Shown here one piece after another: positions 487 through 34,878 of a DNA stretch of 37,147 nt (positions are counted from its first letter, which is position 1; each line of letters opens with the position of its first letter). This DNA comes from an uncultured bacterium (GTDB taxonomy: Bacteria > Hinthialibacterota > Hinthialibacteria > Hinthialibacterales > Hinthialibacteraceae). The notes under the pieces are model-generated. The model was given only the letters and a program-made list of their open reading frames with translations, made no database searches and had not been told where the DNA came from. The position numbers were made by a program, and so were the translations under genes. Location: NCBI GenBank assembly GCA_964449065.1, contig CAYVAZ010000009.1:1-37147 (forward strand), written 5' to 3'.

Positions 487-3213
487 CTAAAAGATGCCGT
501 TTACATTGCTGGAACCTTCCCGTTGAATGATATGATAGACGGTGGTTGCGTTTAACCGGATTTCAATATCTTTATTTTGTTTTTCGGTAACCGGTACGGT
601 TTTTGCCGTCGGCATTCCGTTCTCATCAAGAGCGGTTACCGTTTGCCCCGCCATGTTTTTAAGGGTTACCTTGGCTTGTATCTTTTCTACGCCGAAGGGG
701 TAACTTCCCAGATTTTCGATGGCTCCTTCATTGCCTTGGGAAGCGCGAAAGCCGTAGGGGCGTTCATGTGTCATGGCTTGGATTAGGATCTTCTTCGAGG
801 TGGAAAGCGGTTGATTATCCAATGAGATCACCGCGATGGCGGCATATTCGTTACCGCATTCAATCGAAACGTCATTTAGGTCAATCGTTCCACTTTGATT
901 GAGGTACCCGGTTACGGCTTGGCAGCGTGGGGTGTTTATGGTTGCGATTCCATCGCCATACTCCCACTTCAGTTCACCGGTGATGCTGGAGATAGTTTTC
1001 TCGTCGCGGTTTATGTGTTCGGATATATTAACCTGCACGGATTGGTGGGTGTCTTCAGTGAACTCGCGTTCCACCTTACCGACATAAAACGAGAGCGGAT
1101 CAAAGCCTTTGACCCCGGTTTCGATTTCTTGGCCGGGCGGGATATCCGCTTGGCGAAACGCATCAAAGGCTTGCGCCGATGCGCCGCCGGACCCCTTCAT
1201 GGCGAAGAGTTCATCCAAATCCAGTCGCTCGGAAACAACCGGCTTGGCTTCTTGCACATCTCCACGGCGGTAGAGCAGAGCATAGGCGGGGAAGTTGCCC
1301 AAAATGACAGGAGAGGAAAGCGCGAATTTTTCCATACCGGTATCCCAAAAGGCACCGCCCAAGGCGAAGGTGTAGATGGCATCGACTCCCTGCAACGCGC
1401 CATACGCGGAGGCGAGAAAGGCGAAATCGGCGCGGTAAATGTTGGGGTTGGTCCAGCCGATTTCGGATATGGTTTGGGGATAATCCTTTACTTGATAAAA
1501 CTGCAAGGGTAGGCGTTCAGGAACTTTGAGCGCGGATAGATTTTCGAAGGTGTGTCCGGTTCGGACCGCGTAGGAATGACTGCCGTCTTCGCTTTGATGC
1601 GGCCCGCTGAAGTATCCGTGCATGTCGATGACATCGCCAGCGGTGTAGGTGTAGCGTTCCAGCGCGTCGAGCAAGACCGGATCGGTAACATGCCAATTGC
1701 CGGCAGAGACCAGACTCTTGCTGTCCAATTCATCTTTAAAATAGCGGGTTGTTTCTTCATAAAATTTTCGCTGTAGTTCGGTTAAAAACTCAACTTGATC
1801 GCCGGTACGTTTGCGCTTGCCTTCGTTTGCCTGCCGGATGGCGTCGCCGGTCATGTGCCAGGCTTCGTAGAGGGCAAAGTGGTTTTGGCCGCGGTTGTCG
1901 CCTTCTTTAGTTGTGTTGTTCCATGCCAGCAATGTCTCTCTGGTGCTGCCGTATTTATCGAGCAGCCATTCGGAGAAGCGGGATTCCAACTCGTTCCAAT
2001 AATTGGGCGGAATGTTGTTTTTAGAAAAGGTCCAAAAGAAGAAACTGTCTTCGTTGATCATTTCAACAATCGCGACGGCCGGTTCGTTCGCCAAGATTTT
2101 GCCGGTGTAGGGATTTTTAGTGGTCAGCAACTGCTTGGCCCAGGCGTAATAAATTTCCTGCATGCGATCTTCGAAATACAGCAGCGTGAAGGGGCGTTTG
2201 TTGTTGATGCGTTCAAAGCCTTCAAAGCCGTAATGGGGTTGGATATCGAACCAGAGCGGGAAATAGAAACTAAGCGAGGTGTAGATGCCTTCTTCTTTTA
2301 GCGCGTGGATAAAATAAAACAGGTCATCCAGCTTATTGGGATCAACGGATTCCGGGTTGGTGGATTGAAAAAGCGGGCTGTGATAGCGCACCATGTTCAC
2401 GCCCATTTTTGCCAGTTTGCGCGCGAGGTAATCAATCGAGTTGCGGTCCAGTGCGGCGATTCCGCTGGATGCATTCACGCTCCAAAAGCGAACGGGCTCA
2501 CCGTTGCCCAATACGAACTGACCGCCGTCTTTTTTGATGAAACCATGCATCCCCGCTTGCTCTTCATTCAAATGACGCAGATCCAATAACGACTCATCGG
2601 AAAAGGTATCGATGGGTGGTTCCCAAGCAAAATAGCCTTCATCTGCTTGGCCGGATTTTTCATCCGGCTTCAGTTTGCCGCGTGGAACGAAGGGATGCCG
2701 GGTGAGTAGAAAGCAATCGAAACATGCGGTGAGGGCTTCTCCCTGTTCGGCGAGCAATTCCAGTTCGAAGATGGTTTCACCTGCGTCTAACGAGACTTCG
2801 CCGAGATAAACCCAATTGGCGCCCAAATGTTTGCGGATGCTGACGTTGTCCGCCAAGGCGATATCGCGCGGGCAAATATCCCAGGGTTGATCGTCAAAAC
2901 GCCAGCGGAAGGGACCGTGTTTCCAGAATTTGCGTGTCCAAAAGTGGTATTCGCCTGTATCGTGTATTTGGACGTTATACTTCGCGAACGCGGCTTCTCC
3001 CTCGCGGTCACCGGCATTGGTCAGCCATTCACCTTCGGAGAGGAGGCCCCGCTTGTCGCGGAAGGTGCTGGAGGAGAACCAGGTTTCATCGGGGAAATTG
3101 GTTGCGAGCGTATTTTCGCCTTCCCACCAAATGTAGGGTTTTTCTTGGGTGTATGAAACATGAGATATTAATGTAATTGTGACTAACGCTATTGGAAATA
3201 AATAATTGTTCAT
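487..3213 (-). CDS. Secreted glycoside hydrolase, GH-A clan (GH5-like TIM barrel) with N-terminal carbohydrate-binding-like domain
   Basis: 908 aa with signal peptide. LAKMGVNMVRYH strand, INED acid/base motif and ISEIGW nucleophile-like motif. AAAGGA RBS. Confidence 0.7.
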   Translation of the reverse strand: MNNYLFPIALVTITLISHVSYTQEKPYIWWEGENTLATNFPDETWFSSSTFRDKRGLLSEGEWLTNAGDREGEAAFAKYNVQIHDTGEYHFWTRKFWKHGPFRWRFDDQPWDICPRDIALADNVSIRKHLGANWVYLGEVSLDAGETIFELELLAEQGEALTACFDCFLLTRHPFVPRGKLKPDEKSGQADEGYFAWEPPIDTFSDESLLDLRHLNEEQAGMHGFIKKDGGQFVLGNGEPVRFWSVNASSGIAALDRNSIDYLARKLAKMGVNMVRYHSPLFQSTNPESVDPNKLDDLFYFIHALKEEGIYTSLSFYFPLWFDIQPHYGFEGFERINNKRPFTLLYFEDRMQEIYYAWAKQLLTTKNPYTGKILANEPAVAIVEMINEDSFFFWTFSKNNIPPNYWNELESRFSEWLLDKYGSTRETLLAWNNTTKEGDNRGQNHFALYEAWHMTGDAIRQANEGKRKRTGDQVEFLTELQRKFYEETTRYFKDELDSKSLVSAGNWHVTDPVLLDALERYTYTAGDVIDMHGYFSGPHQSEDGSHSYAVRTGHTFENLSALKVPERLPLQFYQVKDYPQTISEIGWTNPNIYRADFAFLASAYGALQGVDAIYTFALGGAFWDTGMEKFALSSPVILGNFPAYALLYRRGDVQEAKPVVSERLDLDELFAMKGSGGASAQAFDAFRQADIPPGQEIETGVKGFDPLSFYVGKVEREFTEDTHQSVQVNISEHINRDEKTISSITGELKWEYGDGIATINTPRCQAVTGYLNQSGTIDLNDVSIECGNEYAAIAVISLDNQPLSTSKKILIQAMTHERPYGFRASQGNEGAIENLGSYPFGVEKIQAKVTLKNMAGQTVTALDENGMPTAKTVPVTEKQNKDIEIRLNATTVYHIIQREGSSNVNGIF

Positions 3214-3427: not shown

Positions 3428-5011
3428 TTATTTTTTGTGCTTCATTTGACTGTGCTTCAATGTCATTTTATGAATCAGCTCGTTGTCTATACTGTGAATT
3501 TCATAGGAGACGGTTGGGTCATCTTTGGTTGTATCAAACTTCAGCAAGCCGAAGGAGCATTTTTCGTTATACCCAAACAAAGACCCATCCATAATGCCGT
3601 GGGTATGGATATTGGTTAAACGCGAGCTTTGAAACTCATACAAATCATATCCATTCTCACGCTTAATCTTCCATGCATCCGAGCGGTGGCGGTCGGCGGA
3701 GATTAAGAATATCCCATCAATCTTGTTTTCTTCGAAGAAAGAGAAGATTTCTTTGCGTTCTTCTTTATGGCCTTGCCAGGGATCAAGGCTGCCCGGTTTG
3801 GCTCCATACGACCACGGTACCGGTGACGCAATCACTTTAAACGTTGCGTCTGAGTTTTTCACCGACTCCTTCAGCCATTTCATTTGGGCATCACCCAACA
3901 TACGGGCGTTTGGTTCTTTCGGGTTCATCTTGTAATAGCGGCTATCAAGCAAAAAGAAATCGACATCGCCCATGGAAAAGGAGAACCAGCATCCCGGCTG
4001 GTCTTTGCCTCCGCCGTAGGATGGGTTCACCCAGTTCTCTTTAAAGAGTTCCCACACGGGAACTTTCCAATCGGGTTCGAATGTTTCGGGACCGCCCCAG
4101 GCATCGTTGGTGGTAAAGTCGTGATCATCCCATACCGCGTTGACGCTGCGGGTGGCGGTGAAGTAGCGGTAATCCTCACCGGATTGACGGCGGTAATAGC
4201 AGTAGCGCTGCACGGCGGGGCGGGTGGGGTTATCGATATACACGTTATCCCCCATAAATAAAAACGCGCGCATGGGGTGGATGTTGATCGTCTTCCACAT
4301 ACGCTCGTATGGCGGGGTGTATCCGGCCCCGCCGCCGAAGGCGATATCGAACTTCGTCTTCGCTCCATTGGATGGGTAGGTTTGAAACGACCATTTGCCT
4401 GCCTGCTTTTCACCGTTGATAAAGATTTCATATCCATAATGAGTATTGGGCTGCAAACCGGTGAGCGGTACTTCGGCGGTATAGTCCCGGTTTTTGTCAG
4501 TACGGACAATATCGGTGGTCATCTTGTTATAAATGTTGGAAACGGGATGATAAATGACTTGCACATCCGCTTCTTTCGCGGTGCGCAGCCATACCTTGGC
4601 GTTGGTTGCGGTGACGCTGCCCAGCATGGGGCCGTGCACAAATATATCCGCATCGCTCAGCCATTCGCTAAACGCGGGATCTTGGTATAGAGGATGCATC
4701 AAATCGCGTGGACCGGCAACAAAGCGTTCTTTCGGCAAGCCGTGTTCAACCGCTTTCATCGCTGTTTCTAACGCTTTATTCATTTCGCCTTTTTGACCGT
4801 GAACAATTGTCATGGCAAAGAGGGATTCCAAATCATTCGGAAAGCGCTCCAAAATGTCATTCAGATCGTTCAACGCTTTTTCGTATTTGCCGTCCACGAT
4901 ATCCGACATCACTTCGCGCACGAATCTTTTGTACTGCTCCTGTGCTAGGATTGTTGGCTGTGTGAATAGTGTGAAAGACAGAAGAATCCCTAAGATCGCT
5001 GCAAAACGCAT
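3428..5011 (-). CDS. Alkaline phosphatase D (PhoD-like) with N-terminal TPR domain
   Basis: GDNVYID, VWDDHD, LLDSR and SADRH metallophosphoesterase motifs; GPMLG purple-acid-phosphatase N-domain; TPR-like helices; Sec-type signal. Start moved to ATG 5011 behind GGAGGA. Confidence 0.85.
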   Translation of the reverse strand: MRFAAILGILLSFTLFTQPTILAQEQYKRFVREVMSDIVDGKYEKALNDLNDILERFPNDLESLFAMTIVHGQKGEMNKALETAMKAVEHGLPKERFVAGPRDLMHPLYQDPAFSEWLSDADIFVHGPMLGSVTATNAKVWLRTAKEADVQVIYHPVSNIYNKMTTDIVRTDKNRDYTAEVPLTGLQPNTHYGYEIFINGEKQAGKWSFQTYPSNGAKTKFDIAFGGGAGYTPPYERMWKTINIHPMRAFLFMGDNVYIDNPTRPAVQRYCYYRRQSGEDYRYFTATRSVNAVWDDHDFTTNDAWGGPETFEPDWKVPVWELFKENWVNPSYGGGKDQPGCWFSFSMGDVDFFLLDSRYYKMNPKEPNARMLGDAQMKWLKESVKNSDATFKVIASPVPWSYGAKPGSLDPWQGHKEERKEIFSFFEENKIDGIFLISADRHRSDAWKIKRENGYDLYEFQSSRLTNIHTHGIMDGSLFGYNEKCSFGLLKFDTTKDDPTVSYEIHSIDNELIHKMTLKHSQMKHKK

Positions 5012-5044
5012 AATATCCTCCAATTAAAATATACCGGTTTTCGT

Positions 5045-5560
5045 TTAGTATAGGATAGATTTCAAAGAGTCTTTAGCCCCAGCTGCGGTTGGTTTGATGA
5101 TCGTGAATCCTTCTGCCGAAGCGGCATCGCATTGGCGGTGATCATCAGAGATAAATATCACATCGGACGATTCGCTTATCCTAAGTATTTGTGCTGCGGA
5201 AAGATGCATGGCATCTCCTGCCCGCAGTGGATATTTCCCCAAAAAATAAACAGTACTTGAATATAGTTCTTGATTGGTCTCAATAAATTGTATCGTATAG
5301 ATACTCTCTTCTAAAAAGGCATTTACATAAGTGAATGCACGTTGTGCTTCCCATGCATTGATTCTCTTTTTCATATTTATTGCAGAACATACTTCTGAAA
5401 TTGCGTGTCTAGCGGTGAAGAGCCTTTTTTGTTTTGAAAAAACAGTATCGTAGAGATAATTAACAAAGTCATCCCCAGGCTCTACACAATACCTTTTTGT
5501 GATGGCAGAGGAATCGATGTAAATGTGGGAAGGTAGCAGGATATCACCTTCCTTCTTCAC
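5045..5560 (-). CDS. vapC: PIN-domain toxin (VapC family)
   Basis: IYIDSSAITKRY..E, EV.SA, LRAGDAMHLSAA and FISDD acidic PIN motifs. Start codon uncertain. Confidence 0.85.
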   Translation of the reverse strand: MKKEGDILLPSHIYIDSSAITKRYCVEPGDDFVNYLYDTVFSKQKRLFTARHAISEVCSAINMKKRINAWEAQRAFTYVNAFLEESIYTIQFIETNQELYSSTVYFLGKYPLRAGDAMHLSAAQILRISESSDVIFISDDHRQCDAASAEGFTIIKPTAAGAKDSLKSILY

Positions 5561-5750
5561 GCATCTGTATAAGGATTTCTGTTAAAGTAGGACCTTTGTC
5601 ATCTTTGTACTTCTCCCGCAGTTCATACACGGATAGTTTTTCATGCGGGCCGAGTTGAGACAAGATCGCGTCGACATCCTCCCGGGTTAGGCGGGAGGTT
5701 TTGAGTTGCGTTGTTTGCGTCTCTGTATTTTGTTTCTCGTTTGCGACCAT
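5544..5750 (-). CDS. Putative antitoxin of the PIN toxin
   Basis: Small gene upstream of and overlapping vapC. The C-terminal LTEILIQMREE resembles VapB toxin-binding tails. ATG 5750 preferred over the 5846 ORF start. Confidence 0.65.
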   Translation of the reverse strand: MVANEKQNTETQTTQLKTSRLTREDVDAILSQLGPHEKLSVYELREKYKDDKGPTLTEILIQMREEGR

Positions 5751-5787
5751 GGTTTTGTTCCGTTCTTTAGGATGGATAACACAATTC

Positions 5788-5811
5788 AATTGTAACATAC
5801 AAATTGTAACA
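5788..5811 (-). promoter_or_regulatory. Tandem AATTGTAACA repeats, a possible promoter/operator of the TA operon
   Basis: 10-bp direct repeat at 5788-5797 and 5802-5811. Each copy reads TGtTACAAT (extended -10) on the minus strand. Confidence 0.45.
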
Positions 5812-5912
5812 CAAAATGATAGGATTTCCATTTGTTTTTGGGACAACCGAATTGCTATTCTTGCCGGTTTTGTTTATGATATCAAAACAGTGCCGATTGA
5901 AAGGAAAGAATT

Positions 5913-7229
5913 ATGAAACGTTTTCTGTTCATTGTAATCACCGCGTTATTTGCTGTACCGGTTTCCACAGCCCAAACCGATTTTTCTCCCAAGCCGAAAG
6001 AGCAGCAGCTCCCCCAAGCGATGCATTCGCAAATGAAAACGCTGCCGTCCATCACCGTCGGTATGGAAGACGCGGATATCATTGGCAAAGACAACCGCGC
6101 TCTACAGGCGGCGGTCGATTACATCGCGAACCTGGGCGGGGGGACTGTCATCATCCAGCCCGGTGAGTATTTGATGAATGACTCACTTCACCTGCGCTCG
6201 AATGTAACCGTGCGCGGCACTGAGGGGCAGACCGTGTTGATCAAATCAGATGCATCTGTTTCACCTTTAGCGCTGGATGGCGACTTTGGTGAAGAACAGA
6301 TCACGGTTGAAAATCCCGAAGGATTTAAAGTCGGTTATGGCGTGGCGATTTGGGATAAAAACGCCGGAGGCTTCCATACCACCGTCGCCCGCATTACCGG
6401 TAAGGACGGTCACACCGTTTCGATCAGCAATCCGCTGATGTCGGATTGTATGGTACACAACGGAGCCGCTGCCGCAACCGTTTTTCCGGTGGTGAGTGGA
6501 TATAATCTTGAGAACGCCAGGATCGAAAACGTAAAGATTATCGGCAACGCGCAGAATAACCCTTACCTTACCGGATGCCGCGGGGCGGGAATTTTTCTCT
6601 ACCGCGGCTTCGGAAGTGAAATCGTCAATTGCGAAGTGATGGACTACCACGGCGACGGCATCAGCTTTCAGCAATCCAACGATGTAACGGTGAAAGACTG
6701 CAAAAGTCTTAACAACACCCACTTGGGATTGCATCCCGGCAGCGGCTCGCAGCGCCCCAACATTAGCAACTGTATCGCGCGGAACAACGGCAGCGACGGC
6801 CTCTTTTTATGCTGGCGGGTGCGGCACGGCGTTTTCAGCAAAAATCTGCTGGAAGGCAACGGCCGCTTTGGCATCTCCATCGGGCATAAAGATACCGACA
6901 ACCTGTTGCAGGAAAATATCGTGCGCAGCAACGATAACGCGGGTGTGTTTTTCCGTAATGAAACGCTGGGGATGGCGGGGCACCGCAACGCCTTGATCGG
7001 CAATATCATCGAAAACAATGGAGTCAAAGAGGGCGGGGAAGGCATCCGCGTCCGCGGCGAAACCAACGGGCTGGTCTTCAAGAACAACATCATCCGCGAC
7101 ACCCGGCCGGAACACAAAACGCAAACAGTCGGCATCCGCATCGAAGACAGCGCCGGAGACATCGTGCTGGAAGGCAATCAGATTGAAGCCAAGACGAAGA
7201 TTGAGGATTTGCGGAGGAATAATAATTAA
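5913..7229 (+). CDS. Secreted right-handed parallel beta-helix protein (pectate-lyase-like fold)
   Basis: Signal peptide, ALQAAVD..GGGTVIIQPGEY cap, repeated N-x-I-x-x-N...DGI coils, AAAGGA RBS. Confidence 0.85.
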   Translation: MKRFLFIVITALFAVPVSTAQTDFSPKPKEQQLPQAMHSQMKTLPSITVGMEDADIIGKDNRALQAAVDYIANLGGGTVIIQPGEYLMNDSLHLRSNVTVRGTEGQTVLIKSDASVSPLALDGDFGEEQITVENPEGFKVGYGVAIWDKNAGGFHTTVARITGKDGHTVSISNPLMSDCMVHNGAAAATVFPVVSGYNLENARIENVKIIGNAQNNPYLTGCRGAGIFLYRGFGSEIVNCEVMDYHGDGISFQQSNDVTVKDCKSLNNTHLGLHPGSGSQRPNISNCIARNNGSDGLFLCWRVRHGVFSKNLLEGNGRFGISIGHKDTDNLLQENIVRSNDNAGVFFRNETLGMAGHRNALIGNIIENNGVKEGGEGIRVRGETNGLVFKNNIIRDTRPEHKTQTVGIRIEDSAGDIVLEGNQIEAKTKIEDLRRNNN

Positions 7230-9103
7230 TTGCTGACAGTACTGGCTGTGGCAAGTAAATCTTTTAATGCTTCAGTCTGTATAAAAGGAGCTTGCGCACG
7301 AACGGTTTCATTGCCCAAATCACATAATAAATCGCCTTTGCCAAGGAGATTCTGACCGCCCGATTGATCCAATATGATTTCTGAATTCTTTTGGGTATTG
7401 ACACGCATACATATTTTTAATGGAAGATTGGCCTTGATCAAACCGGTAACGATTTTCGCTTCCGGTCTTTGTGTGGCTAAGACAAGATGAATACCCGCGG
7501 CCCGCCCTTTTTGCGCGATTTTGGCAATCAATGATTCAAACTCTTTCTTTTGATCTTTGTCCGATAGAATCAAATCGCCAAATTCATCCACAAAAATCAC
7601 CAAGAAAGGTATGTCCGTTTTCCCATCCGAAAAACGGTCTTTTAATTGGTCATACTTTTCATCAGACAACTGCTGATACCGGCGGTTCATTTCAACAACA
7701 GCCTCTTGTAAACTCTCAATCGCTTCTTCTATGTTTGTGATAATTGGTTTAGACAAATGAGGAATCGATTCAAACACATTGAAGGACAGAATTTTTGGAT
7801 CGATCAAGATAAATTGAATTGCCGATTGAGTGTTTCGTTTGATTAAAGAATAAATCATCGATTTCAAAAACTCACTTTTCCCGCTGCCTGTCATACCGGC
7901 CACCAATGCATGGCAAGTGTTGGTCTCCGCCAAATCCGCCAGGATGAGTTTGTTGTTGATACCGATACCGATAGGGAATACAAGCGGACTATCCGATTCT
8001 TGAAACTCAGGCTTATTCAAAACATCCAGCAGGTTTACGGTTTCCGAATTTTCTTTGGGAATATCGACCGCAACATACCCTTGTTGCGGATGCACATGCG
8101 GTGCTTGGGGGAGTTCTAATTGCACCATTAAATCATCCGCCCTACCTGCCAATGAGACAGATTTAACCCCGCTCCCCGGTTTTAATTGAAAGCGTATGAG
8201 TTGGGGGGCTTCGATGGCTCCAATTACGTCCACATCGATTTTGAATGAAGAGTAGCAATCCTTAATTTTGTGAGAAAGTAATTCGATATAAGCCATTTCT
8301 TCTTTCGGTGGATTAGGAACCGTATCTGCTTCCTCTTTTTTTCCCGATGTTGGTTCGGGTTTCTTTGGGTGTTCAGTCAACAGATATCGTATGGTGGGTA
8401 CAACTTTAGTATTATACAATTCATCCAACTCGGTTAAATCCACTTTCATAGTTTCCAGTTCCGGATTGTAATACTCTATCAGCCCATGAAAAGAAAGACC
8501 GGGTTTGGTGAGTTTTAAAAGTTGTGAGTAAATAGCGACTTGTAGCAAATCCTGCTCCCGGTTTTCGCCTTTGGTTAGTTTGTAGTCAACCACTTCCAAT
8601 TCATGGTTGGGAAGGCTTCGAATGGCATCCACTCTCCCGGAGACACGCAGAATTCCTTCTTCAAATTCCAACACGACGTTCTCAATTTTAAATTCCTGCA
8701 CGATGAAGATTTGATTCCAATGGTTGAAATCTTGAACCTCATTTTGCAGCGTTTCCAAATTATGACAGAACGTTTTCAGGCATTTCACTAAATGCGCGAC
8801 GGTGTCTGGATTATGATTGCCTTCTAACAATTGGTTCACGTGTGTGCCCGCACTTTGCTCCCAAAGAGTAAGCCATAGATCGTTATACGAAAACGGTATA
8901 TTCTTTTGATCCTTCGGAAAATGAAATAGCCAATTCACAAACTCATCAACGATTTGATGAAACCGCAAGCCATGGACCGGCTGTGACGATTTTCCGGGTA
9001 GAGAAAATGTGGGTGGGTTCTCACCCCGCAACCACCGCTCGCGCCACTTTTCATCTTGGCACGCGCATTTGAGCTGGGTGACGTTGATCGTTAACTCAGC
9101 CAT
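7226..9103 (-). CDS. PD-(D/E)xK (AddB/Cas4-like) nuclease fused to an FtsK/SpoIIIE DNA translocase motor
   Basis: N-part: HG..FH, QEF, GRVDAI...VVDYK, QVAIY. C-part: HALVAGMTGSGKS, ILIDPK, EMNRRY, IFVDEFGDL, KGRAAGIHLVLATQRP, LLGKGDLL. Confidence 0.9.
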   Translation of the reverse strand: MAELTINVTQLKCACQDEKWRERWLRGENPPTFSLPGKSSQPVHGLRFHQIVDEFVNWLFHFPKDQKNIPFSYNDLWLTLWEQSAGTHVNQLLEGNHNPDTVAHLVKCLKTFCHNLETLQNEVQDFNHWNQIFIVQEFKIENVVLEFEEGILRVSGRVDAIRSLPNHELEVVDYKLTKGENREQDLLQVAIYSQLLKLTKPGLSFHGLIEYYNPELETMKVDLTELDELYNTKVVPTIRYLLTEHPKKPEPTSGKKEEADTVPNPPKEEMAYIELLSHKIKDCYSSFKIDVDVIGAIEAPQLIRFQLKPGSGVKSVSLAGRADDLMVQLELPQAPHVHPQQGYVAVDIPKENSETVNLLDVLNKPEFQESDSPLVFPIGIGINNKLILADLAETNTCHALVAGMTGSGKSEFLKSMIYSLIKRNTQSAIQFILIDPKILSFNVFESIPHLSKPIITNIEEAIESLQEAVVEMNRRYQQLSDEKYDQLKDRFSDGKTDIPFLVIFVDEFGDLILSDKDQKKEFESLIAKIAQKGRAAGIHLVLATQRPEAKIVTGLIKANLPLKICMRVNTQKNSEIILDQSGGQNLLGKGDLLCDLGNETVRAQAPFIQTEALKDLLATASTVSN

Positions 9104-11043
9104 TGTAAGTAACTCATTGTTGGGCTTTTATAATAATTGATTTCGGTCATGTCGTTTTGAACTGCAATGATTTTTTCTTCTGTAATTCCAGGGATGCGGC
9201 TTTTCAAATCATCCACCCCCAAGAACTTTTCAATTTGCATGATGTCTACAATTTTTTTTTTAAATTCATCATTGTTTGGTATTTCAGGGGATTCATTTTG
9301 CTCCTGTTCTAGGAGTTTCGACCAAAGAGGTTTGAATTGTTCGCGCAAAAACATCTTGACTTGGTCAGGGGAATATTCGATGTTTTGCCCCGTCGCGTCC
9401 AAGAACATATCGTGACCGGCATATAACAGTACGAGTTCATCCTTTGTCAATGAATAAACCGTTAAAATGTGGTTTTGTTTTGCTTTATTGATAAAATCAG
9501 CAACTTTCCAAGTTTGTTTCGGGATCGGTGGTTGATTGAAAATCCGAAAGAATATGCCTCTCTTAATTTGACCGGGGACCAATTGATAAGAGCGTTTTGT
9601 AATGGCATTCCAGCTGCTCCAATTGGTGTTATCTTGAAACCCAAAATAGTAGATTTCATTTTCGTTTAGAATTTGAAAATGAAAATATTTCTCACGATTG
9701 ACGGCCCTGCATTCATAGCCCTCCGGCATTAATGTTTTCACCAGCCAAATGAACGTATCCCGGTCATATACCATTCTCTTGCGGTTTGATTGTACGATCC
9801 GTTGATACTCTTTAAAGAATTGTTCTAACGGCTTGGAGGGGGGAATGGTATGGGATTCATGATCCCATTGGTCTCTGCATTTGTGTATGAAATGACGAAT
9901 CCCTATCGTGGTATTGGAAAATAAGGAATCCAACCAATCGTCTTCCAGCATTTGATGCACTTTTTGAGGCTCAATTTGAATGCCATCCAACCGGCCGCGG
10001 ATGAATTCTTTCGCTTGTTGTTTGTTGATTCCTTCTAATTCTATCGGGTTGCTTAAACGGTGGGTATAAGCGTCTTCCCAAAAAGGAACAATGGTATTTT
10101 TCCAGGGTTCTTGATTGGAAGTTAATATGGTCATGTGATTATGAAACTCATCATTTAATGTTGTAAGAATGCCGCCTAAAGTTTTGGCTAAGTTTTCATC
10201 CAACCCGTAATTTTCTGTTTGGTCAAAGCAAAAAACAAAAGGCCGGTACAATCCTGCCAGCTGGCACAAATCAAACAGAATCGTTTTGCAACTCTCATTG
10301 AGCTGAGCGATGGACATTTCATAAGGCAAAACATCGCCGGGACGAATGCCAATATCATTTGCCTCATTGGGGTCAATGCAATTGCTTTTCATCCACTCTT
10401 GGCAAATCTCTTTTTTCATGAAATCATCATCGTATGCAAACGTGAGTAATACATGAATCCATGTCATTACGGTGTAATTCAATTGTAGATTGCATGAACT
10501 CAATTCGTCTGCGATTTGGTTTTTTTTCTCTCGAATGGTTTTTATAATGATATCAGAAACGTGTTCCAAGGGTGTGTTCTGAATATACTTTTCTAAATGA
10601 GGGACATTCTTTACTTGGATCGTACCTTTTTGCGCGCATTGGATCAACAACCGGCTCAAAACACCATGGGCAAAATAGGATATTTGCGGACTGGCTGTTT
10701 GATTTCCAACATGATCGTCCGGAAAATTCAACTCATTTGTTACTTGATTTAAAATGGATTTCCATGCCGTGCTATGATCGGAAAACGGCGTAATGTATAT
10801 TAAATTCGCCTTGCGGTTCAAGTGATGAAACACTCGACCTAATAAATGGGATTTTCCGTAGCCGGGATCTCTCGATGTAATAAACTGAATGTGATCCAAT
10901 TTTACATCTTTTCGGGGAAGAGGCGGTTCAATGAGAGTATTGAATTCATTCAAAACATGTTCTAATACCCGATTATTCAAACCGGAAATGCTGTTTTCTA
11001 TCGATCTCGGTTTCGTGACAATATCTTGACTGAATGGGTTCAT
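9091..11043 (-). CDS. P-loop ATPase (AAA-like) with uncharacterised C-terminal domains
   Basis: Walker A DPGYGKSHLL and Walker B FVFCFDQTE separated by a ~200 aa helical insert. RL...IELEGI..QQAKEFIRGRL resembles an AAA+ lid region. AGGA RBS. Confidence 0.8.
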   Translation of the reverse strand: MNPFSQDIVTKPRSIENSISGLNNRVLEHVLNEFNTLIEPPLPRKDVKLDHIQFITSRDPGYGKSHLLGRVFHHLNRKANLIYITPFSDHSTAWKSILNQVTNELNFPDDHVGNQTASPQISYFAHGVLSRLLIQCAQKGTIQVKNVPHLEKYIQNTPLEHVSDIIIKTIREKKNQIADELSSCNLQLNYTVMTWIHVLLTFAYDDDFMKKEICQEWMKSNCIDPNEANDIGIRPGDVLPYEMSIAQLNESCKTILFDLCQLAGLYRPFVFCFDQTENYGLDENLAKTLGGILTTLNDEFHNHMTILTSNQEPWKNTIVPFWEDAYTHRLSNPIELEGINKQQAKEFIRGRLDGIQIEPQKVHQMLEDDWLDSLFSNTTIGIRHFIHKCRDQWDHESHTIPPSKPLEQFFKEYQRIVQSNRKRMVYDRDTFIWLVKTLMPEGYECRAVNREKYFHFQILNENEIYYFGFQDNTNWSSWNAITKRSYQLVPGQIKRGIFFRIFNQPPIPKQTWKVADFINKAKQNHILTVYSLTKDELVLLYAGHDMFLDATGQNIEYSPDQVKMFLREQFKPLWSKLLEQEQNESPEIPNNDEFKKKIVDIMQIEKFLGVDDLKSRIPGITEEKIIAVQNDMTEINYYKSPTMSYLQWLS

Positions 11044-11055
11044 ATGAGTGTCCTA

Positions 11056-11808
11056 TTATGAGAGAAGCCGTACCAACAAAAATCGGTCTCCATCAAACTC
11101 CACCGCTCCTAAACGTGTTTCTTTTGATGACAAAGACCAATCCCCAAAATTGAATTCTGCCTTTCCCTCTTTGCGTAAGGTTAAGATATATTCCTTAATC
11201 CAATCCAGAGGGATGCCGGTTTCTTTATGCAGGTTATAAATTTCCACCGCAGAAAAGCCTGATTGTTGCGATAACTTTCGATAAGCCTCATTGATTTGCT
11301 GTTTATATTCATTTGTGTCAATAGGAGGCTCTTGAGTTGTTGTTTGTCCAGAAAGATCAAGTGAATCCACTATTGGTTTTACACCGATATAAGAAAAATA
11401 ATTGGCGGTCTTTAATTTTAAAACTTTTTGTTCTTGTATCAGGATATCTAATGCTTCATTTACATGTTTATTTACCGAAGAATACTTCTTGATTTCTTTT
11501 ATCTTTTCAATTTTTCCTTTCGAGATCAACTTCAAGCCATTTGAATTGAATATCTTTTCTAACTCTTCGTAAGCCCTTTCGAGTGGACGGTAATGTTCAG
11601 GAAGTACAAAGCATGCTCTTGCTTTTGATCCTAAATTAAAGATTTTTCTCTCCTGTAGCAACGCTTTTAGCGCCTCGGTTTTGATTTTTGAACTTCCGCA
11701 AAGATTGCTCTTTGTTATTCCTTCAGCGCCAACCTCTTTCAACCGCTGTAAAAGATTTTTTTTTTCGACTTCTACTTTAATTTGATTCATTCTAAAGGAA
11801 ACATCCAA
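11056..11808 (-). CDS. Basic multi-winged-helix-like DNA-binding protein
   Basis: Lys-rich 250 aa with three wHTH-like units (ITKSNL..ALKALLQERKI; ISKGKI..ALDILIQEQKV; VEIYNLHKE..ILTLRKEGKA). Start is TTG 11808 or ATG 11790. Confidence 0.6.
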   Translation of the reverse strand: MDVSFRMNQIKVEVEKKNLLQRLKEVGAEGITKSNLCGSSKIKTEALKALLQERKIFNLGSKARACFVLPEHYRPLERAYEELEKIFNSNGLKLISKGKIEKIKEIKKYSSVNKHVNEALDILIQEQKVLKLKTANYFSYIGVKPIVDSLDLSGQTTTQEPPIDTNEYKQQINEAYRKLSQQSGFSAVEIYNLHKETGIPLDWIKEYILTLRKEGKAEFNFGDWSLSSKETRLGAVEFDGDRFLLVRLLS

Positions 11809-11845
11809 TCTATCCTATTTTTTGCTGCCGGTATGTTCTAAATAC

Positions 11846-11875
11846 AGAATAGCACGTACAAAAAGACGAAATCAA
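11846..11875 (-). promoter_or_regulatory. Candidate sigma70 promoter of the three-gene operon
   Basis: Minus strand reads TTGATT, 18-nt spacer ending in TGc, then TATTCT (extended -10). Confidence 0.4.
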
Positions 11876-12035
11876 CAGGCGTATAGAGTATTATAAAATT
11901 TTAATGCAAACTTAAAAACTATGAGAAAAGAAAGATGAATTTTCTGGATAATTACGGATATATTGTTATAGATTCAGATCGGAAAGAAGGTTTCTTAAAC
12001 AGTCGGTTTGGTAAACAGACTCAAGCCATCCTTTG

Positions 12036-12578
12036 TCACCCAAACCGCGATACATCTCCATCGCTAATTGTTCCGTTGCTGATGTCGTAAAAGAAGATCA
12101 GGTTGCCGGTGGCGGCTTCGTAGTCGGTGTCGGGGCCTGCCCCGTGGAGGAGGAAACTGGCTCCAGAGGCTTGGCTCTCCACCAACCGAAAATTGCCGTT
12201 TGCCCGGTTGGTTTTTACCACTTCCGTGTCCCATAATGGATACGCGCTGTCTTCTGCCTGAAACATACCGTCTCCGTTTGGATCAATTCCTTGGCGGAAC
12301 GGGTCGAGCGGAACGGTGCTCATGTATGCCACGGGTGTGGTGAGTTTCGCCAAACGGTGAAAACGCAGGTTGCCGGCCGTGTTTGGAGTGGGTGGGTACA
12401 TGTTGTTGTCGATTTGATAGGTTTCCAACGCGGTCGCCAGGGCGCGCTGATCGGCTTGGGTGTTCGCGACTTTCGCGCGGATTTGCGCGTTGATAAAATT
12501 CGGGACAGCAATCGCTGCTAAAATTCCTATGATTGCCACTACAATCAGTAACTCAATAAGTGTAAAAGCCTTCTTCAT
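12036..12578 (-). CDS. Prepilin-type N-terminal cleavage/methylation protein (GspG/pilin-like)
   Basis: MKKA|FTLIELLIVVAIIGILAAIAVP; ALETYQIDNNMYP; DPF; GPD. GGGAGA RBS. Confidence 0.9.
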   Translation of the reverse strand: MKKAFTLIELLIVVAIIGILAAIAVPNFINAQIRAKVANTQADQRALATALETYQIDNNMYPPTPNTAGNLRFHRLAKLTTPVAYMSTVPLDPFRQGIDPNGDGMFQAEDSAYPLWDTEVVKTNRANGNFRLVESQASGASFLLHGAGPDTDYEAATGNLIFFYDISNGTISDGDVSRFG

Positions 12579-12664
12579 CTTGTTCTCCCTAAATAAACAT
12601 TTAACAATAAATGAATCATAATCAAAAAATAATTAAAATGCTATGGTATTATGCGTAATTTGAT

Positions 12665-12779
12665 CTAGTAGCCTGTCAATCAAAAAATGGCGGCTGGCTA
12701 TCCGTTGTTCCCCCCCCCCTTGTTAAGGGGGGCTAGGGGGGGATCGATACCCGTCAATAAATCGTTGACACTGTACTAG
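12665..12779. mobile_element. Element A: CTAG-bounded MITE-like cassette with a C/G-run REP hairpin
   Basis: ctag-tagcctgtcaa ... cccccttgttaaggggggctagggggggat ... ttgacactgta-ctag. Inverted second copy at 32690-32799. Confidence 0.8.
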
Positions 12780-12884
12780 TAGCCTGGCAAGCGAAAAGTG
12801 TCGAGTACGGTGAAACCCCTGTGGCTCGGCGGGAGCCTCGCCCTCCCAATTCAACCCGACATAAGGACTCGGTCAGGCTACTGG
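12776..12884 (-). mobile_element. Element B, complete copy: MITE-like cassette with the GGGAGGGCGAGGCTCCCGCCGAGCC REP
   Basis: ctag-tagcctggc ... gtcaggcta-ctgg terminal inverted repeats. Shares the CTAG at 12776-12779 with element A. Two more partial copies in the window. Confidence 0.75.
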
Positions 12885-12889
12885 ATGCA

Positions 12890-13921
12890 TTACGTGAAAA
12901 TCCAAACACGGCCGTGAATTTTGTTGTCTTCGCTAAGGATGGGTACGGTTTTGCATTGGAAGGAATTGGCATAACTCTCGTCGTACAGGGGAAACGTATA
13001 TATATCTTTCTCATTTCTCTTTATGGCGTCAAAGGTTTCTTTCCATTCGTCTACCGGAACGGTTTTAAAACTGCCCAAAATTTCCGACCATTTGGCATAA
13101 TCACTGCCGATGAGTTCATTTTCTTTCTTGCCGGTCAGTTCCAAAAACGGTTGGTTGACGATTTTCACTTCGCCGCTGCGGTCGGTGATGGCGATCCCCT
13201 CATCAATGTGATGCAATGTGATGGCAAATCGCCGGTTTTGCTCTTCGATTTCGACATTGTGGTCGCCGATAGAAAGGAGTGCATCCTGCAATTCCGCCGA
13301 TTGTTCTTCCAGTTCGTTGTTGGCGGCTTCTAACTCTTTTTTGAGTTCGGTAAGTTCTTGGTTGGTGCGTTCCAACTCCTGGTTTTTTTCTTCGTAAAGA
13401 GAAAGGGTTTGCATCAGGCTGGAGTTTTGCAGTTCAAATTCATCGCTGATGGTCGGGTTTTTTCGGGATGAAAATTTTTCTTGGAAAAAGTGGACAATAT
13501 TTTGAGTAAGTGATTTCCCGGGGGCTGCTTTTTTTTTGGTTAACCGGACGGCGGTACCGTTTTTGCGGTCGGATTGAATGTCGATCGAATCCATCATGCG
13601 CTTCATGGCGGGGATGCCGCGCATGGTTTTTCCAGAGGTTTTGGTGTTGAGAACCTCTTGCAGTTGCTCGGGAGGAATGCCCTTGCCTTTGTCTTTACCG
13701 ATGACTTCAAGGGTTAAGGTGTCATCTTCCGTGAACAATGAGATCGAGATTTTCCCTGAGCCTGCATAGAGCAGGATATTTTTTCCGAGTTCGAATATAG
13801 AGGTAGTGATCTGCATTTGCTGCGGGACAGTAAAGCCGAGCTCGCTGCTGATAACACGGGCACGGTCGCGAACCGCGAGAATGTCGCTTTCGCATTCAAT
13901 GCCGTGAGAAAATATCTCCAT
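12890..13921 (-). CDS. RsbT-like anti-sigma/HATPase domain + coiled coil + PAS domain protein
   Basis: ITTSIFELGKNILLYAG, DKGKGIP and GIPAMKRMMDSIDIQS..GT (RsbT-type GHKL); heptad ELERTNQELTEL; PAS segment IDEGIAITDRSG...VNQPFLELTG...GRVWIF. Confidence 0.8.
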   Translation of the reverse strand: MEIFSHGIECESDILAVRDRARVISSELGFTVPQQMQITTSIFELGKNILLYAGSGKISISLFTEDDTLTLEVIGKDKGKGIPPEQLQEVLNTKTSGKTMRGIPAMKRMMDSIDIQSDRKNGTAVRLTKKKAAPGKSLTQNIVHFFQEKFSSRKNPTISDEFELQNSSLMQTLSLYEEKNQELERTNQELTELKKELEAANNELEEQSAELQDALLSIGDHNVEIEEQNRRFAITLHHIDEGIAITDRSGEVKIVNQPFLELTGKKENELIGSDYAKWSEILGSFKTVPVDEWKETFDAIKRNEKDIYTFPLYDESYANSFQCKTVPILSEDNKIHGRVWIFT

Positions 13922-33001: not shown

Positions 33002-34729
33002 TTAATGAATCGACCATTCGCGAACATACGAAGTTGGATCACCAAATACCTCCTCTCCAACTTGTAACGATACATCCGAAAATACAGCGGCACTGATTTC
33101 TCCTACCGAGTGAGATGTAATTGCCAATCCGATATAGTATTGGGTTTCGTCTTCCAAACTGCCTAAATATTCCACATCGATAAGCGCGTGAACTTCTCTT
33201 TGTCTTCCGGTCAAGGCATCGTAATAGTAGAAAATGGTTTCATTGGTCACGGGATTGCGCTCCACCTCGACGGTTCCGTTTTGTTCACCATATCCTGTCC
33301 CACCAAGAATGGTTCTGCCGCCGCCGGCCGTTGCTCCGTTCCCACCGAAAACGGGGCGCCATTGCGGCACAAAATCACGCCCCCCTGAGCGGATCAATGA
33401 GAAAACGTGAGAAGCCGAAGCATCCAGGTCATCGCGAATCATCGGCCCGGCTTTGGCCCAGGTTTGTTCCCCATTCATCGGGTCCAACTTAACGGTCGCT
33501 TTCAATCGAACCGGGACATCCATGGGCACTTTTTTGTAGAGGTAATGAAAGTTATCCGCTTGGTTCCAAATGTCGTTCCCGCTGCCAACCACGGTGTAGG
33601 TTTCGGTTTCAGGATTGTAAACGGCTGCTCCATTGGCGCCTAAATTATCCCGGCCGGAAAAGTCGATGATATCCATGCTGTTGTCAAAGATTCCAAACCC
33701 ACCCCCTGCGGGCAAGACGAAGATGCTTCTTCTGCCGCTGGCTTGAAAGAATTCGATGCCGTTGGTGACGCCGCCTTGTAAAGATAGACGACCTCCTTCT
33801 TTGCCAACGGTTGCCTCATACGAGAGGGTGATATTGCCACCGGATGCGTCGGGAATATTCCAAGTAATGATGTTTTCGGATGCGCTTGCCGTTCCCCGAA
33901 TGGCATCAAAGTTTCCGGCTGTCCATCCTTCCGGAAGGGTTTCGGTAACGGTCAGGTCTTCGGTTTTACCCGGTTCTACATCTACGGTGAGAGAGATCGG
34001 CATAGTCTCACCGGAATGGATGATTTTTTGCCCGCCAAAATCACGTGAGACGGATGCACCGACGCCCTGAACCGGTTCAATAGATAGGCTCGAAAAGAAC
34101 GCCCGCTCCAGTTTTTCAACATCGTGTGAGGTGACGGCCAAGCCAACATAGGCCTCGGTTGGGAAGTTGGGGACTTTTCGAGCGCCAATAGGCACGGTAG
34201 AGCCGTCTTCCAATATACGGTACATCGTAAACACATCACCAGTACGCAGCAGTTGAATCCTATCGGTTTCTTGCCCTTTTTTGGCAATGGTTTCCATCCC
34301 CACGGATCGCTCGCCCGAAGCGAGCCGGGCTTGCAATTCCGCCCCCAAATCTCTGCGCAATAAAGCGAAAACGTATGAACTGCTTGGGTCTTCAGGTTCC
34401 GCGCGAAACATAATGCCCATTTTTTTCCAAAAATTGCTGTTGGTGTTGCCGGGGATTTCTTGTGGCCCCCATTCCATTGAGACGGTGACACGGAAATTCC
34501 CGGAAATTTCTTTATACACCCAATACATGCCGTCAGCGGTGTTCCAAATATCATCGCCGGAACCGAGAACTTCATACGTTCCTGTAGATGAAACGAAATT
34601 GGCCTCTCCCAAACCGGCGTCGGTGCCTAAGCTGGCTTCATGAGTGAAATCACCGAGTTGCGCGAACGCAGGTAAAGAAATTAGACTTACGGCTGCTATC
34701 AAAATAAGTGAAATATGACTTTTTTTCAT
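33002..34729 (-). CDS. Secreted protein with two ConA/DUF1349-like beta-sandwich repeats around an Ig/DUF11-like domain (paralogue 2)
   Basis: Signal peptide ending AFA|Q; GSGDDIWNTADG and GSGNDIWNQADNFH repeats; VTETLPEGW..ITWNI..TLSY. Start moved to ATG 34729 behind GGAGGG. Confidence 0.75.
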   Translation of the reverse strand: MKKSHISLILIAAVSLISLPAFAQLGDFTHEASLGTDAGLGEANFVSSTGTYEVLGSGDDIWNTADGMYWVYKEISGNFRVTVSMEWGPQEIPGNTNSNFWKKMGIMFRAEPEDPSSSYVFALLRRDLGAELQARLASGERSVGMETIAKKGQETDRIQLLRTGDVFTMYRILEDGSTVPIGARKVPNFPTEAYVGLAVTSHDVEKLERAFFSSLSIEPVQGVGASVSRDFGGQKIIHSGETMPISLTVDVEPGKTEDLTVTETLPEGWTAGNFDAIRGTASASENIITWNIPDASGGNITLSYEATVGKEGGRLSLQGGVTNGIEFFQASGRRSIFVLPAGGGFGIFDNSMDIIDFSGRDNLGANGAAVYNPETETYTVVGSGNDIWNQADNFHYLYKKVPMDVPVRLKATVKLDPMNGEQTWAKAGPMIRDDLDASASHVFSLIRSGGRDFVPQWRPVFGGNGATAGGGRTILGGTGYGEQNGTVEVERNPVTNETIFYYYDALTGRQREVHALIDVEYLGSLEDETQYYIGLAITSHSVGEISAAVFSDVSLQVGEEVFGDPTSYVREWSIH

Positions 34730-34823
34730 GGGATATCCCTCCCAGACAGTATTATTGATTACTTGGGTAAATATAACAATTTTGAGAGAGAGTATCAGAT
34801 ATTTTTTGAAGATGTAAAGAAAT

Positions 34824-34849
34824 AAGGCGGTGAGTTGCCCCACCGCCTT
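34824..34849 (-). terminator. Intrinsic terminator-like hairpin between the two paralogues
   Basis: Minus strand AAGGCGGTGGG-GCAA-CTCACCGCCTT followed by ATTTCTTT. There is also a T-run on the plus side. Confidence 0.75.
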
Positions 34850-34878
34850 TTTTAGCATAAAAAGATCAGACTATGAAT

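Follow-up and report, generated by a model that had tools for sequence, protein, structure and literature searches.

The DNA analysed here, which we call the window, is a stretch of 37,147 nucleotides (nt) from an uncultured bacterium of the family Hinthialibacteraceae (assembly GCA_964449065.1, contig CAYVAZ010000009.1, read on the forward strand). Its minus strand carries three adjacent genes, here named g1, g2 and g3, which encode a protein with three winged-helix domains, an AAA+ ATPase of the Orc/Cdc6 clade, and a nuclease fused to an FtsK-type DNA motor. By its features the trio is a new member of a predicted class of Orc/CDC6-coupled "HerA/FtsK capture" systems, as the published passages on that class describe them (PMC10853773, NAR 2024). 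The trio is horizontally acquired, and it probably constitutes a self-contained, transferable, DNA-targeting conflict module of the capture class, a function suggested by analogy with such systems.

The layout of the operon had been described in a first-pass annotation made from the letters of the window alone: three co-oriented genes, a 12-nt gap with an AGGA ribosome-binding site, a 13-nt overlap, and a TTAA shared with the convergent neighbour. The open reading frame (ORF) listing confirms this to the nucleotide. The junction between g1 and g2 reads TAA-TAGGACACTCAT-ATG, with the AGGA 8 nt ahead of the g2 start codon, and the TTAA at 7226-7229 serves both the stop codon of g3 (7226-7228, minus strand) and that of the convergent beta-helix gene (7227-7229, plus strand). 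The hand counts of G+C content (GC) in single lines, 17/60, 22/60 and 37/60, are likewise exact, and the AT-richness that they implied extends to the whole trio, which has a GC of 0.401 over 7226-11808 as compared to 0.479 in the remainder of the window. None of 234 trio-length windows outside the trio fell below 0.455. A single sigma-70-like site lies upstream of g1 (11927..11898, minus strand). Promoter- and terminator-like sites are no more frequent in the scan than in shuffled sequence, and the operon promoter entered in Table 1 is therefore inferred only. No Rfam family was found in 4500-13000.

Table 1. Positions of the trio, its junctions and the domains of its products within the window
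Feature	Position	Strand	Basis or remark
Operon, total span	7226..11808	-	three co-oriented ORFs, g1 to g2 to g3 (ORF listing)
Presumed promoter region, AT-rich intergenic (GC 0.32), upstream of g1	11809..12035	-	inferred only
g1, 250 amino acids (aa), three winged-helix domains	11056..11808	-	TTG start; alternative ATG 11790
g1 winged helix 1, residues 6-71	11596..11793	-	
g1 winged helix 2, residues 74-147	11368..11589	-	
g1 winged helix 3, residues 163-250	11059..11322	-	best conserved portion of g1
g1-g2 spacer, 12 nt, with AGGA ribosome-binding site	11044..11055	-	
g2, 650 aa, Orc/Cdc6-clade AAA+ ATPase plus two C-terminal domains	9091..11043	-	AlphaFold2 (AF2) model, fold searches, family alignment
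g2 AAA+ module, residues 1-400	9844..11043	-	Walker A G61-Y-G-K64-S65; Walker B D274-Q275-T-E277
g2 middle domain, residues ~425-555, candidate inactive restriction endonuclease (REase)	9379..9771	-	DSSP of model; conservation
g2 C-terminal winged helix-turn-helix (wHTH)-like domain, residues 592-650, candidate tether to g3	9094..9270	-	DSSP
g2/g3 overlap, 13 nt (g3 ATG 9103; g2 stop 9091-9093)	9091..9103	-	ORF listing
g3, 625 aa, nuclease-FtsK fusion	7226..9103	-	
g3 PD-(D/E)XK nuclease, RecB/Cas4 type, residues 1-255	8339..9103	-	Pfam PDDEXK_1 E 7.4e-9
g3 FtsK alpha domain, residues 267-349	8057..8305	-	Pfam FtsK_alpha E 2e-9
g3 FtsK/SpoIIIE motor, residues 358-616	7256..8032	-	Pfam FtsK_SpoIIIE E 1.3e-44

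The effector gene, g3, is the best defined of the three. Its Pfam matches, all above the gathering scores, extend over residues 38-216 (PDDEXK_1), 267-349 (FtsK_alpha) and 358-547 (FtsK_SpoIIIE), and the Pfam scan returned no other domain. Because the catalytic motifs are invariant among 24 orthologous sequences, both the nuclease and the motor look active. These motifs comprise H49, E137, D159, D173-Y-K175 and Q188...Y192 in the nuclease, and Walker A (G403-x2-G-S-G-K409-S), Walker B (D506-E507) and T544-Q-R-P547 in the motor. The protein has no membrane anchor and, after the motor, no gamma domain, the module that reads FtsK orienting polar sequences (KOPS); the chain ends about 9 residues past the motor match, which reaches residue 616 in the alignment to the SspH model. 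A separate FtsK-like gene is present in the same genome (contig C131), and its motor is 36% identical to that of g3.

Neither Pfam nor NCBIfam assigns g2 to a family; its matches to AAA_22 and AAA_16 are weak, and the placement of g2 relies on structure. In fold searches with the AF2 model (predicted local distance difference test, pLDDT, 86), residues 1-400 superpose best on Cdc6, ORC and TnsC, with NSF, p97 and HslU scoring about 11-12.4. These searches were dominated by the AAA+ domain, and none covered the C-terminal part. A Foldseek search with the entire model gave nothing at E<=0.001, and its weak multi-domain rows were not used; the lone match of the g2 sequence to solved structures, at the chance level of E 0.75, was discarded. 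The Walker A motif is canonical. The Walker B motif is D-Q-T-E (residues 274-277, window 10213-10224), with glutamine at the position of the usual AAA+ catalytic glutamate, and it is invariant in 23/23 aligned family members and in every further locus examined save one mis-called ORF. By analogy with Walker B E-to-Q mutants, this motif suggests that g2 acts as a slow-hydrolysing switch. Beyond the AAA+ module, residues 425-555 of the model follow an alpha-beta-beta-beta-alpha-beta topology, the order of an REase core, with no invariant Asp, Glu or Lys. The REase fold is not proven, since hhalign of residues 420-560 against the g3 nuclease found nothing (probability 1%), and an ESM Atlas look-up with residues 422-650 returned unnamed clusters only. 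Residues 592-648 of the model read H-E-H-H-E-E by DSSP, which is winged-helix order.

The g1 protein gave weak winged-helix matches only in the Pfam scan, and DndG, SspB and FokI were absent among its listed fold matches. Its start is ambiguous between the TTG at 11808, which has an AGGA 5 nt upstream, and an ATG in the same frame at 11790, where the closest homologue, P0122, has its start. A word-indexed homology search with g1 found its own protein and one homologue only, and further relatives were for this reason collected from g2 loci. Median identity to the window protein is 32.5% for g1, 31.5% for g2, 36.2% for the nuclease of g3 and 49.7% for its FtsK part. Of the 49 loci in which all three genes are found by profile search, flanks not being required, tblastn detects g1 in only 33. 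These rates would fit a specificity subunit in g1 and a conserved motor in the FtsK part. Thus the DNA binder, accessory ATPase and nuclease-FtsK fusion that the first-pass annotation had read from the translations are borne out at the level of domains and intact catalytic motifs.

Conservation of the operon was examined in the best 80 of 161 g2 relatives located in genome contigs, by profile and phmmer searches of six-frame ORFs. A g1 gene stands directly upstream of g2 in 70 of the 73 loci with sufficient upstream sequence. Downstream of g2, the g3 nuclease is found in 52/67 loci and the nuclease together with FtsK in 46/67, and the complete trio is present in 45 of the 64 loci having both flanks. 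Gene overlaps like those of the window recur in orthologous loci (for example L005, L006, L010 and L016). The loci come from about eight phyla, with taxa including Desulfobacterota-type bacteria, Verrucomicrobiota, Alphaproteobacteria, Gammaproteobacteria, Nitrospirota, Nitrospinota, Planctomycetota (Candidatus Kuenenia), Mariprofundaceae and Myxococcales. Individual relatives include MBAV_003707 of Candidatus Magnetobacterium bavaricum, SAMN02746065_106164 of Desulfocicer vacuolatum DSM 3385, and loci of Verrucomicrobium sp. 3C, Rhodoplanes and Bradyrhizobium. The g2 family is real but rare: a word-indexed search found 431 relatives, all annotated as hypothetical, and at E<=1e-30 there are 128 cluster representatives among 1.84 billion.

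The loci that depart from the window arrangement bear on how g2 and g3 are connected. L038 and L056 have the same nuclease joined to an ATPase of HerA type (HerA_C/DUF87), where the window has FtsK-alpha and FtsK. Among 20 long g2 relatives that were scanned, 14 have FtsK_SpoIIIE after the g2 core, seven of these with PDDEXK_1 as well, two have a HerA-type domain, and four have no Pfam hit. These long proteins are Rosetta-stone fusions of g2 and g3, in which the g2 match runs to about residue 580-606 and so ends where one would expect the C-terminal wHTH to start. The fusions measure about 900-1400 aa and join the g2 core to PDDEXK_1, FtsK_alpha and FtsK or a HerA-type domain (e.g. P0140, P0178, P0214, P0215, P0227, P0203 and P0252); those of HerA type are P0188 and P0226, and P0206, P0205, P0217 and P0236 have long C-terminal extensions without a Pfam hit.

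A further group of loci has g1 and g2 without g3. The genes that follow these pairs are unrelated, e.g. riboflavin synthesis, mannosyltransferase and NADH dehydrogenase genes. Therefore the sensor pair can exist without the g3 effector, or these loci are decaying. A search for the g3 nuclease elsewhere in five such genomes did not find it, using a single-sequence query with no positive control, so that the empty result is weak. The g2 proteins differ accordingly at their C-terminus: all 15 proteins that have a g3-type nuclease downstream carry the wHTH, and all 10 that have none (L022, L025, L027, L028, L034, L039, L048, L080, L018 and L011) lack it, counts that come from related sequences and hence do not represent independent events. 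L066 was left out of this comparison, its ORF having been called in the wrong frame. When g3 was modelled in complex with g2 residues 556-650, the score was 0.59, as compared to 0.00 for the best of three controls, with at least 96% contact agreement between runs and a partner pLDDT of at least 71. The mark applied to such predictions is reached by 116 of 157 solved complexes and by 2 of 215 mismatched pairs. Scores of 0.60 or below occur in just 18 of the 157 solved complexes and in both of the mismatches that passed. The prediction therefore lends weak support to binding of g3 by the g2 C-terminus. Taken together, the motor swaps, the natural fusions, the co-occurrence with g3 and the truncations where the effector is absent, and the complex prediction make the g2 C-terminal winged helix the likely link to g3.

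Some loci show other arrangements after g2. L004 (7134-7814), L070 (9010-9777) and L072 (about 9010-9735) carry a stand-alone g3-type nuclease of about 226-255 aa, with no FtsK or HerA motor detected downstream. At L019 (9058-12321) no more than the first ~90 residues of the g3 nuclease can be recognised, and they run into a 1087-aa SMC/AAA_27-like protein, which may be a disrupted locus or a further effector swap.

The distribution of the family is patchy. Its profile matches 2/35 genomes of the window's phylum, the window's own genome being counted (1/34 others), and a strong match, at 44% identity, occurs in one of 19 other genomes of the same family. The only close relative in that family, G007, holds two copies on contigs C16 and C14 (L005, L011); one is a full trio, and the other is a g2 without g3 whose upstream g1 match is weak. 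For the flanks, 31 fully flanked trio loci were reduced by seven near-duplicates and then by four more, leaving 20 loci with 127 flanking ORFs. Their flanking genes are mostly unrelated housekeeping genes and differ between loci. The low GC, the patchy distribution and the differing flanks mark the trio as horizontally acquired.

This pattern bears on the idea that the trio serves accessory DNA repair or chromosome maintenance, performing end resection or resolving dimers and tangles in the manner of HerA-NurA or AddAB, with an initiator-like ATPase as a guide. A RecB-family nuclease combined with a ring translocase follows the logic of HerA-NurA end resection, the FtsK-alpha domain and motor resemble those of cellular FtsK down to the 36% identity with the C131 gene, and the housekeeping character of the neighbours would suit such a role. 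However, genes for repair would hardly be expected in 2 of 35 genomes of a phylum and in so few cluster representatives, at a GC 8 points under that of the flanks, with a fast-evolving wHTH subunit and interchangeable motors. Rarity, low GC, the fast wHTH protein and the swappable motors therefore point to an accessory conflict gene set rather than core repair, and we regard the repair explanation as very improbable.

Transfer could instead mean that a mobile element, for instance one of Tn7/Mu-like or conjugative type, uses the trio as its own machinery for processing or targeting DNA. In such an element a TnsC/MuB-like AAA+ protein would pick targets, the REase-fold nuclease would cut, and the FtsK-type pump would move element DNA. 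The resemblance of the g2 fold to TnsC is in keeping with this idea. Against it, genes for a DDE transposase, an integrase, a relaxase or type IV secretion are neither conserved beside the trio in the 20 loci nor present beside it in the window; terminal repeats bracketing the trio, inverted or direct, were not found; no relatives appear in plasmid, phage or IMG/VR collections; and the g3 nuclease is RecB/Cas4-like (QxxxY), with no TnsA model matching in any scan. We consider this origin of the trio improbable. The differing flanks, the lack of relatives in mobile collections and the absence of bracketing repeats argue instead that the trio is a self-contained moving cassette.

The combination of domains in the trio corresponds to a published prediction from comparative genomics. 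PMC10853773 describes, in the passages concerned, mobile neighbourhoods in which five elements come together, and it predicts that these "HerA/FtsK capture" systems act against invaders. Their AAA+ ATPase is of the Orc/CDC6 type and ends in a C-terminal wHTH, ahead of which an inactive REase is inserted. It is accompanied by an active REase, for which two families are published; by a rapidly evolving extra protein with 2-4 wHTH; and by a HerA/FtsK domain, which in one set has a preceding FtsK-alpha "captured" from cellular FtsK and in another is of a different HerA type. The domains may be spread over one or several polypeptides. The Orc/CDC6 protein is proposed there to localise the apparatus on DNA, and the HerA/FtsK protein to intercept invader DNA and pump it to the nuclease. 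Of the six structural features of the class, as far as those passages define it, the trio plainly shows four and is compatible with the remaining two. The AAA+ module of g2 answers to the Orc/CDC6 ATPase; PDDEXK_1 and the invariant residues of g3 stand for the probably active REase; g3, the HerA_C/DUF87 proteins of L038 and L056, and the fusions provide the FtsK-alpha domain and motor and its different versions; and g1, fast-evolving and with three winged helices, is the extra multi-wHTH protein. The two remaining features rest on the g2 model, in which residues 425-555 have an REase-like topology that hhalign did not corroborate, and residues 592-648 have the predicted winged-helix order expected of the C-terminal wHTH. 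The first-pass annotation, which put the trio forward as a candidate undescribed system, is therefore not supported on this point, since the architecture of the trio had already been predicted in that paper, and the logic that it proposed, with the wHTH protein recognising DNA, the ATPase loading or licensing, and the motor feeding the nuclease, is essentially the one published for the class. The prediction is restated in the part of PMC12839542 (NAR 2026) that deals with Orc/CDC6 HerA/FtsK capture, and the phrase "FtsK capture" occurred in a single paper only in a full-text literature search. Loss of the g2 wHTH where g3 is absent, loci of g1 and g2 only, and the D-Q-x-E Walker B go beyond the published passages on the class; with the operon conservation counts, the motor swaps, the g2-g3 fusions and the link between the wHTH and g3, they are what the present analysis adds.

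A working scheme for the trio can be drawn from these parts. The g1 protein would recognise invading plasmids, conjugative elements or phages by a feature of their DNA. The g2 protein, with D-Q-x-E in place of D-E in its Walker B, would serve, with ATP bound, as a switch or loader and not as a motor, and its C-terminal winged helix would hold g3. The g3 protein would form an FtsK-type ring, pump the captured duplex and cut it with its RecB/Cas4-type nuclease. Because g3 lacks a gamma domain, specificity would be supplied by g1 and g2. The first-pass annotation had seen no methylase, and the search agrees: none is encoded in the window or among the 127 flanking ORFs of the 20 related loci. With no modification enzyme encoded, self would therefore be told from non-self by the invader itself or by its state of replication, transfer or packaging, and not by a methyl mark. 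By analogy with the published class, we judge a role of the trio in defence or against invaders to be reasonably likely.

The missing modification gene could also be read in favour of abortive infection, in which the nuclease-motor, triggered once g1 and g2 sense an invader, would degrade host and invader DNA alike and so kill or arrest the cell. Orc/Cdc6- and STAND-related ATPases are described in PMC10853773 as frequent triggers of suicidal effectors, and the D-Q-x-E Walker B hints at a switch that works like a latch. The three winged helices of g1 and the DNA pump, on the other hand, suit targeted capture at least equally, and we think abortive infection unlikely to be the mode of action.

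A more specific form of the capture scheme would treat the trio as an immune counterpart of replication licensing, with g1 marking foreign DNA and an ATP-locked g2 loading the nuclease-FtsK/HerA ring, as ORC/Cdc6 loads MCM. The ATP lock would arise from D-Q-x-E, g2 would hold its effector through a dedicated C-terminal winged helix, and loading of the ring would be topological. The swappable motors, the fusions and the truncated, effector-less g2 proteins would all follow from such a design of adaptor and cargo, and the loci of g1 and g2 only would encode sensors that stand by themselves and either enlist other effectors or work on DNA through binding alone. We hold this analogy to be a speculative proposal with a small chance of being correct.

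Several observations weigh against the interpretation of the trio as a capture-type conflict module. Every functional step in it is drawn by analogy; the trio was assigned to the class, in the published passages that define it, by features and not by accession; and full-text literature searches found no experimental test of the class. The inactive REase of g2 is a candidate on the basis only of topology and missing conserved catalytic residues. The first-pass annotation had expected the homologues to co-occur, which holds for the full trio in 45/64 loci and fails in the 10/64 fully flanked loci that have g1 and g2 without g3. The context of a defence island is weak: by raw count, defence- or mobile-type neighbours occur in 6/20 loci (9/127 flanking ORFs), and they consist of Mrr_cat with IS66 and IS200 transposases, ORF6N, HNH, a TOTE AEP-helicase-PLD protein, Uma2 and a DDE transposase. 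In the window, the sole defence-type gene near the trio is a PIN-like gene below threshold. Finally, searches of 72,556 plasmids, of 50,697 phages and of IMG/VR yielded no g2 relatives, so that carriage on known mobile elements is not seen.

Among the related loci, the clearest defence neighbour seen lies in Candidatus Kuenenia, where a 995-aa TOTE conflict-system protein (L030:1816-4803; AEP-TOTE primase, ResIII/DEAD helicase and PLD nuclease) is encoded about 1.4 kb upstream of the trio. The neighbours of the trio in the window encode a PhoD-like phosphatase, a right-handed beta-helix protein, a type II secretion pseudopilin and a PAS/HATPase protein, followed by a flagellar export operon. 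Two small overlapping genes at 5045-5846 (minus strand), of 100 aa and then 171 aa with GC of 0.42 and 0.40, are separated from the trio by the GC-rich beta-helix gene. The 171-aa protein has a PIN-domain match that covers nearly the whole profile and falls below threshold (E 0.0012, 19.8 bits as compared to a cut-off of 23.6), and the two genes are possibly a VapBC-like toxin-antitoxin pair belonging to the same acquired patch as the trio. For three long ORFs, at 487-3213, 33002-34858 and 34879-36603 (908, 618 and 574 aa), the Pfam scan gave no family at E<=1e-4, and the latter two have faint DUF11 matches only.

A compact trio in which all catalytic motifs are intact is a practical candidate for the first experimental test of the capture class, and the natural fusions, motor swaps and effector-less variants of its family are now mapped. 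If the scheme is correct, a chromosome-segregation pump would have been turned into a weapon against invading DNA that operates without a modification mark, and an initiator-type ATPase would be employed as its sensor or loader. If the trio fails in such a test, the published prediction for the class would be weakened.

The trio can be set against known systems at the level of both models and architecture. As the first-pass annotation had supposed, no named system in PADLOC-DB v2.0.0 matches it: g1 and g2 have no matching family there at E<=0.1, and g3 is matched only through generic FtsK and Cas4-like domains, with domain-level hits to the SspH C-terminus (E 4.8e-63), mad8, HerA and Cas4. No NCBIfam family lies above its cut-off. 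On these grounds, PADLOC matches at the domain level only and NCBIfam scores below cut-offs, DndFGH/SspFGH, MADS, Cas4 and the HerA pairs were rejected as identities for the trio. Cas4 (TIGR00372) scores 30.6 bits against g3, with a cut-off of 65, and there are no cas genes in the window and no repeat array in 4800-12700. A Tn7-like transposon (TnsABC) was rejected as well, with no transposase beside the trio, none conserved in the 20 loci and no bracketing repeats. Unlike TnsC of Tn7 and MuB of Mu, for which a transposase partner and element ends would be expected and were not found, g2 has additional REase-like and wHTH domains.

Cellular FtsK shares with g3 the alpha and beta motor domains and all ATPase motifs. 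The match of g3 to the cellular FtsK model (NCBIfam NF007615) has an E of 6.3e-66, but at 222.9 bits it stays far from the equivalog cut-off of 1566, and g3 lacks the N-terminal membrane domain and the gamma/KOPS domain, carrying a nuclease at its N-terminus. DUF4297-HerA, Sir2-HerA and archaeal HerA-NurA resemble the trio in coupling a ring translocase of the HerA/FtsK superfamily to an effector nuclease. The PADLOC HerA models match g3 weakly and partially (best E 6e-12, about 54 residues), and the trio differs from these pairs in that the nuclease and an FtsK-type motor with its alpha domain form one polypeptide, to which two obligatory partners, one Orc/Cdc6-like and one with a triple wHTH, are added.

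The trio also has a parallel in DndFGH/SspFGH, which likewise have three genes and no obligatory modification partner. One of their subunits (DndG) has a triple wHTH, an accessory protein has a P-loop, and the large subunit combines an REase with a C-terminal HerA/FtsK motor. However, g3 aligns only to positions 1400-1761 of the 1766 in the SspH model, and to 1238-1560 in a second model, and no DndF, DndG, SspF or SspG model is matched by g1 or g2. At 625 aa, g3 is also far shorter than DndH (about 1700) and lacks its SWI2/SNF2-C, target-recognition and inactive-methylase domains; DndH/SspH subunits are defined by a core of eight domains, with SWI2/SNF2-C, HTH, beta-sandwiches, target-recognition domains, an inactive methylase, an REase and HerA/FtsK. 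The difference extends to the accessory NTPase, which in DndFGH/SspFGH is a P-loop kinase, whereas in the trio it is an AAA+ ATPase of the Orc/Cdc6 type.

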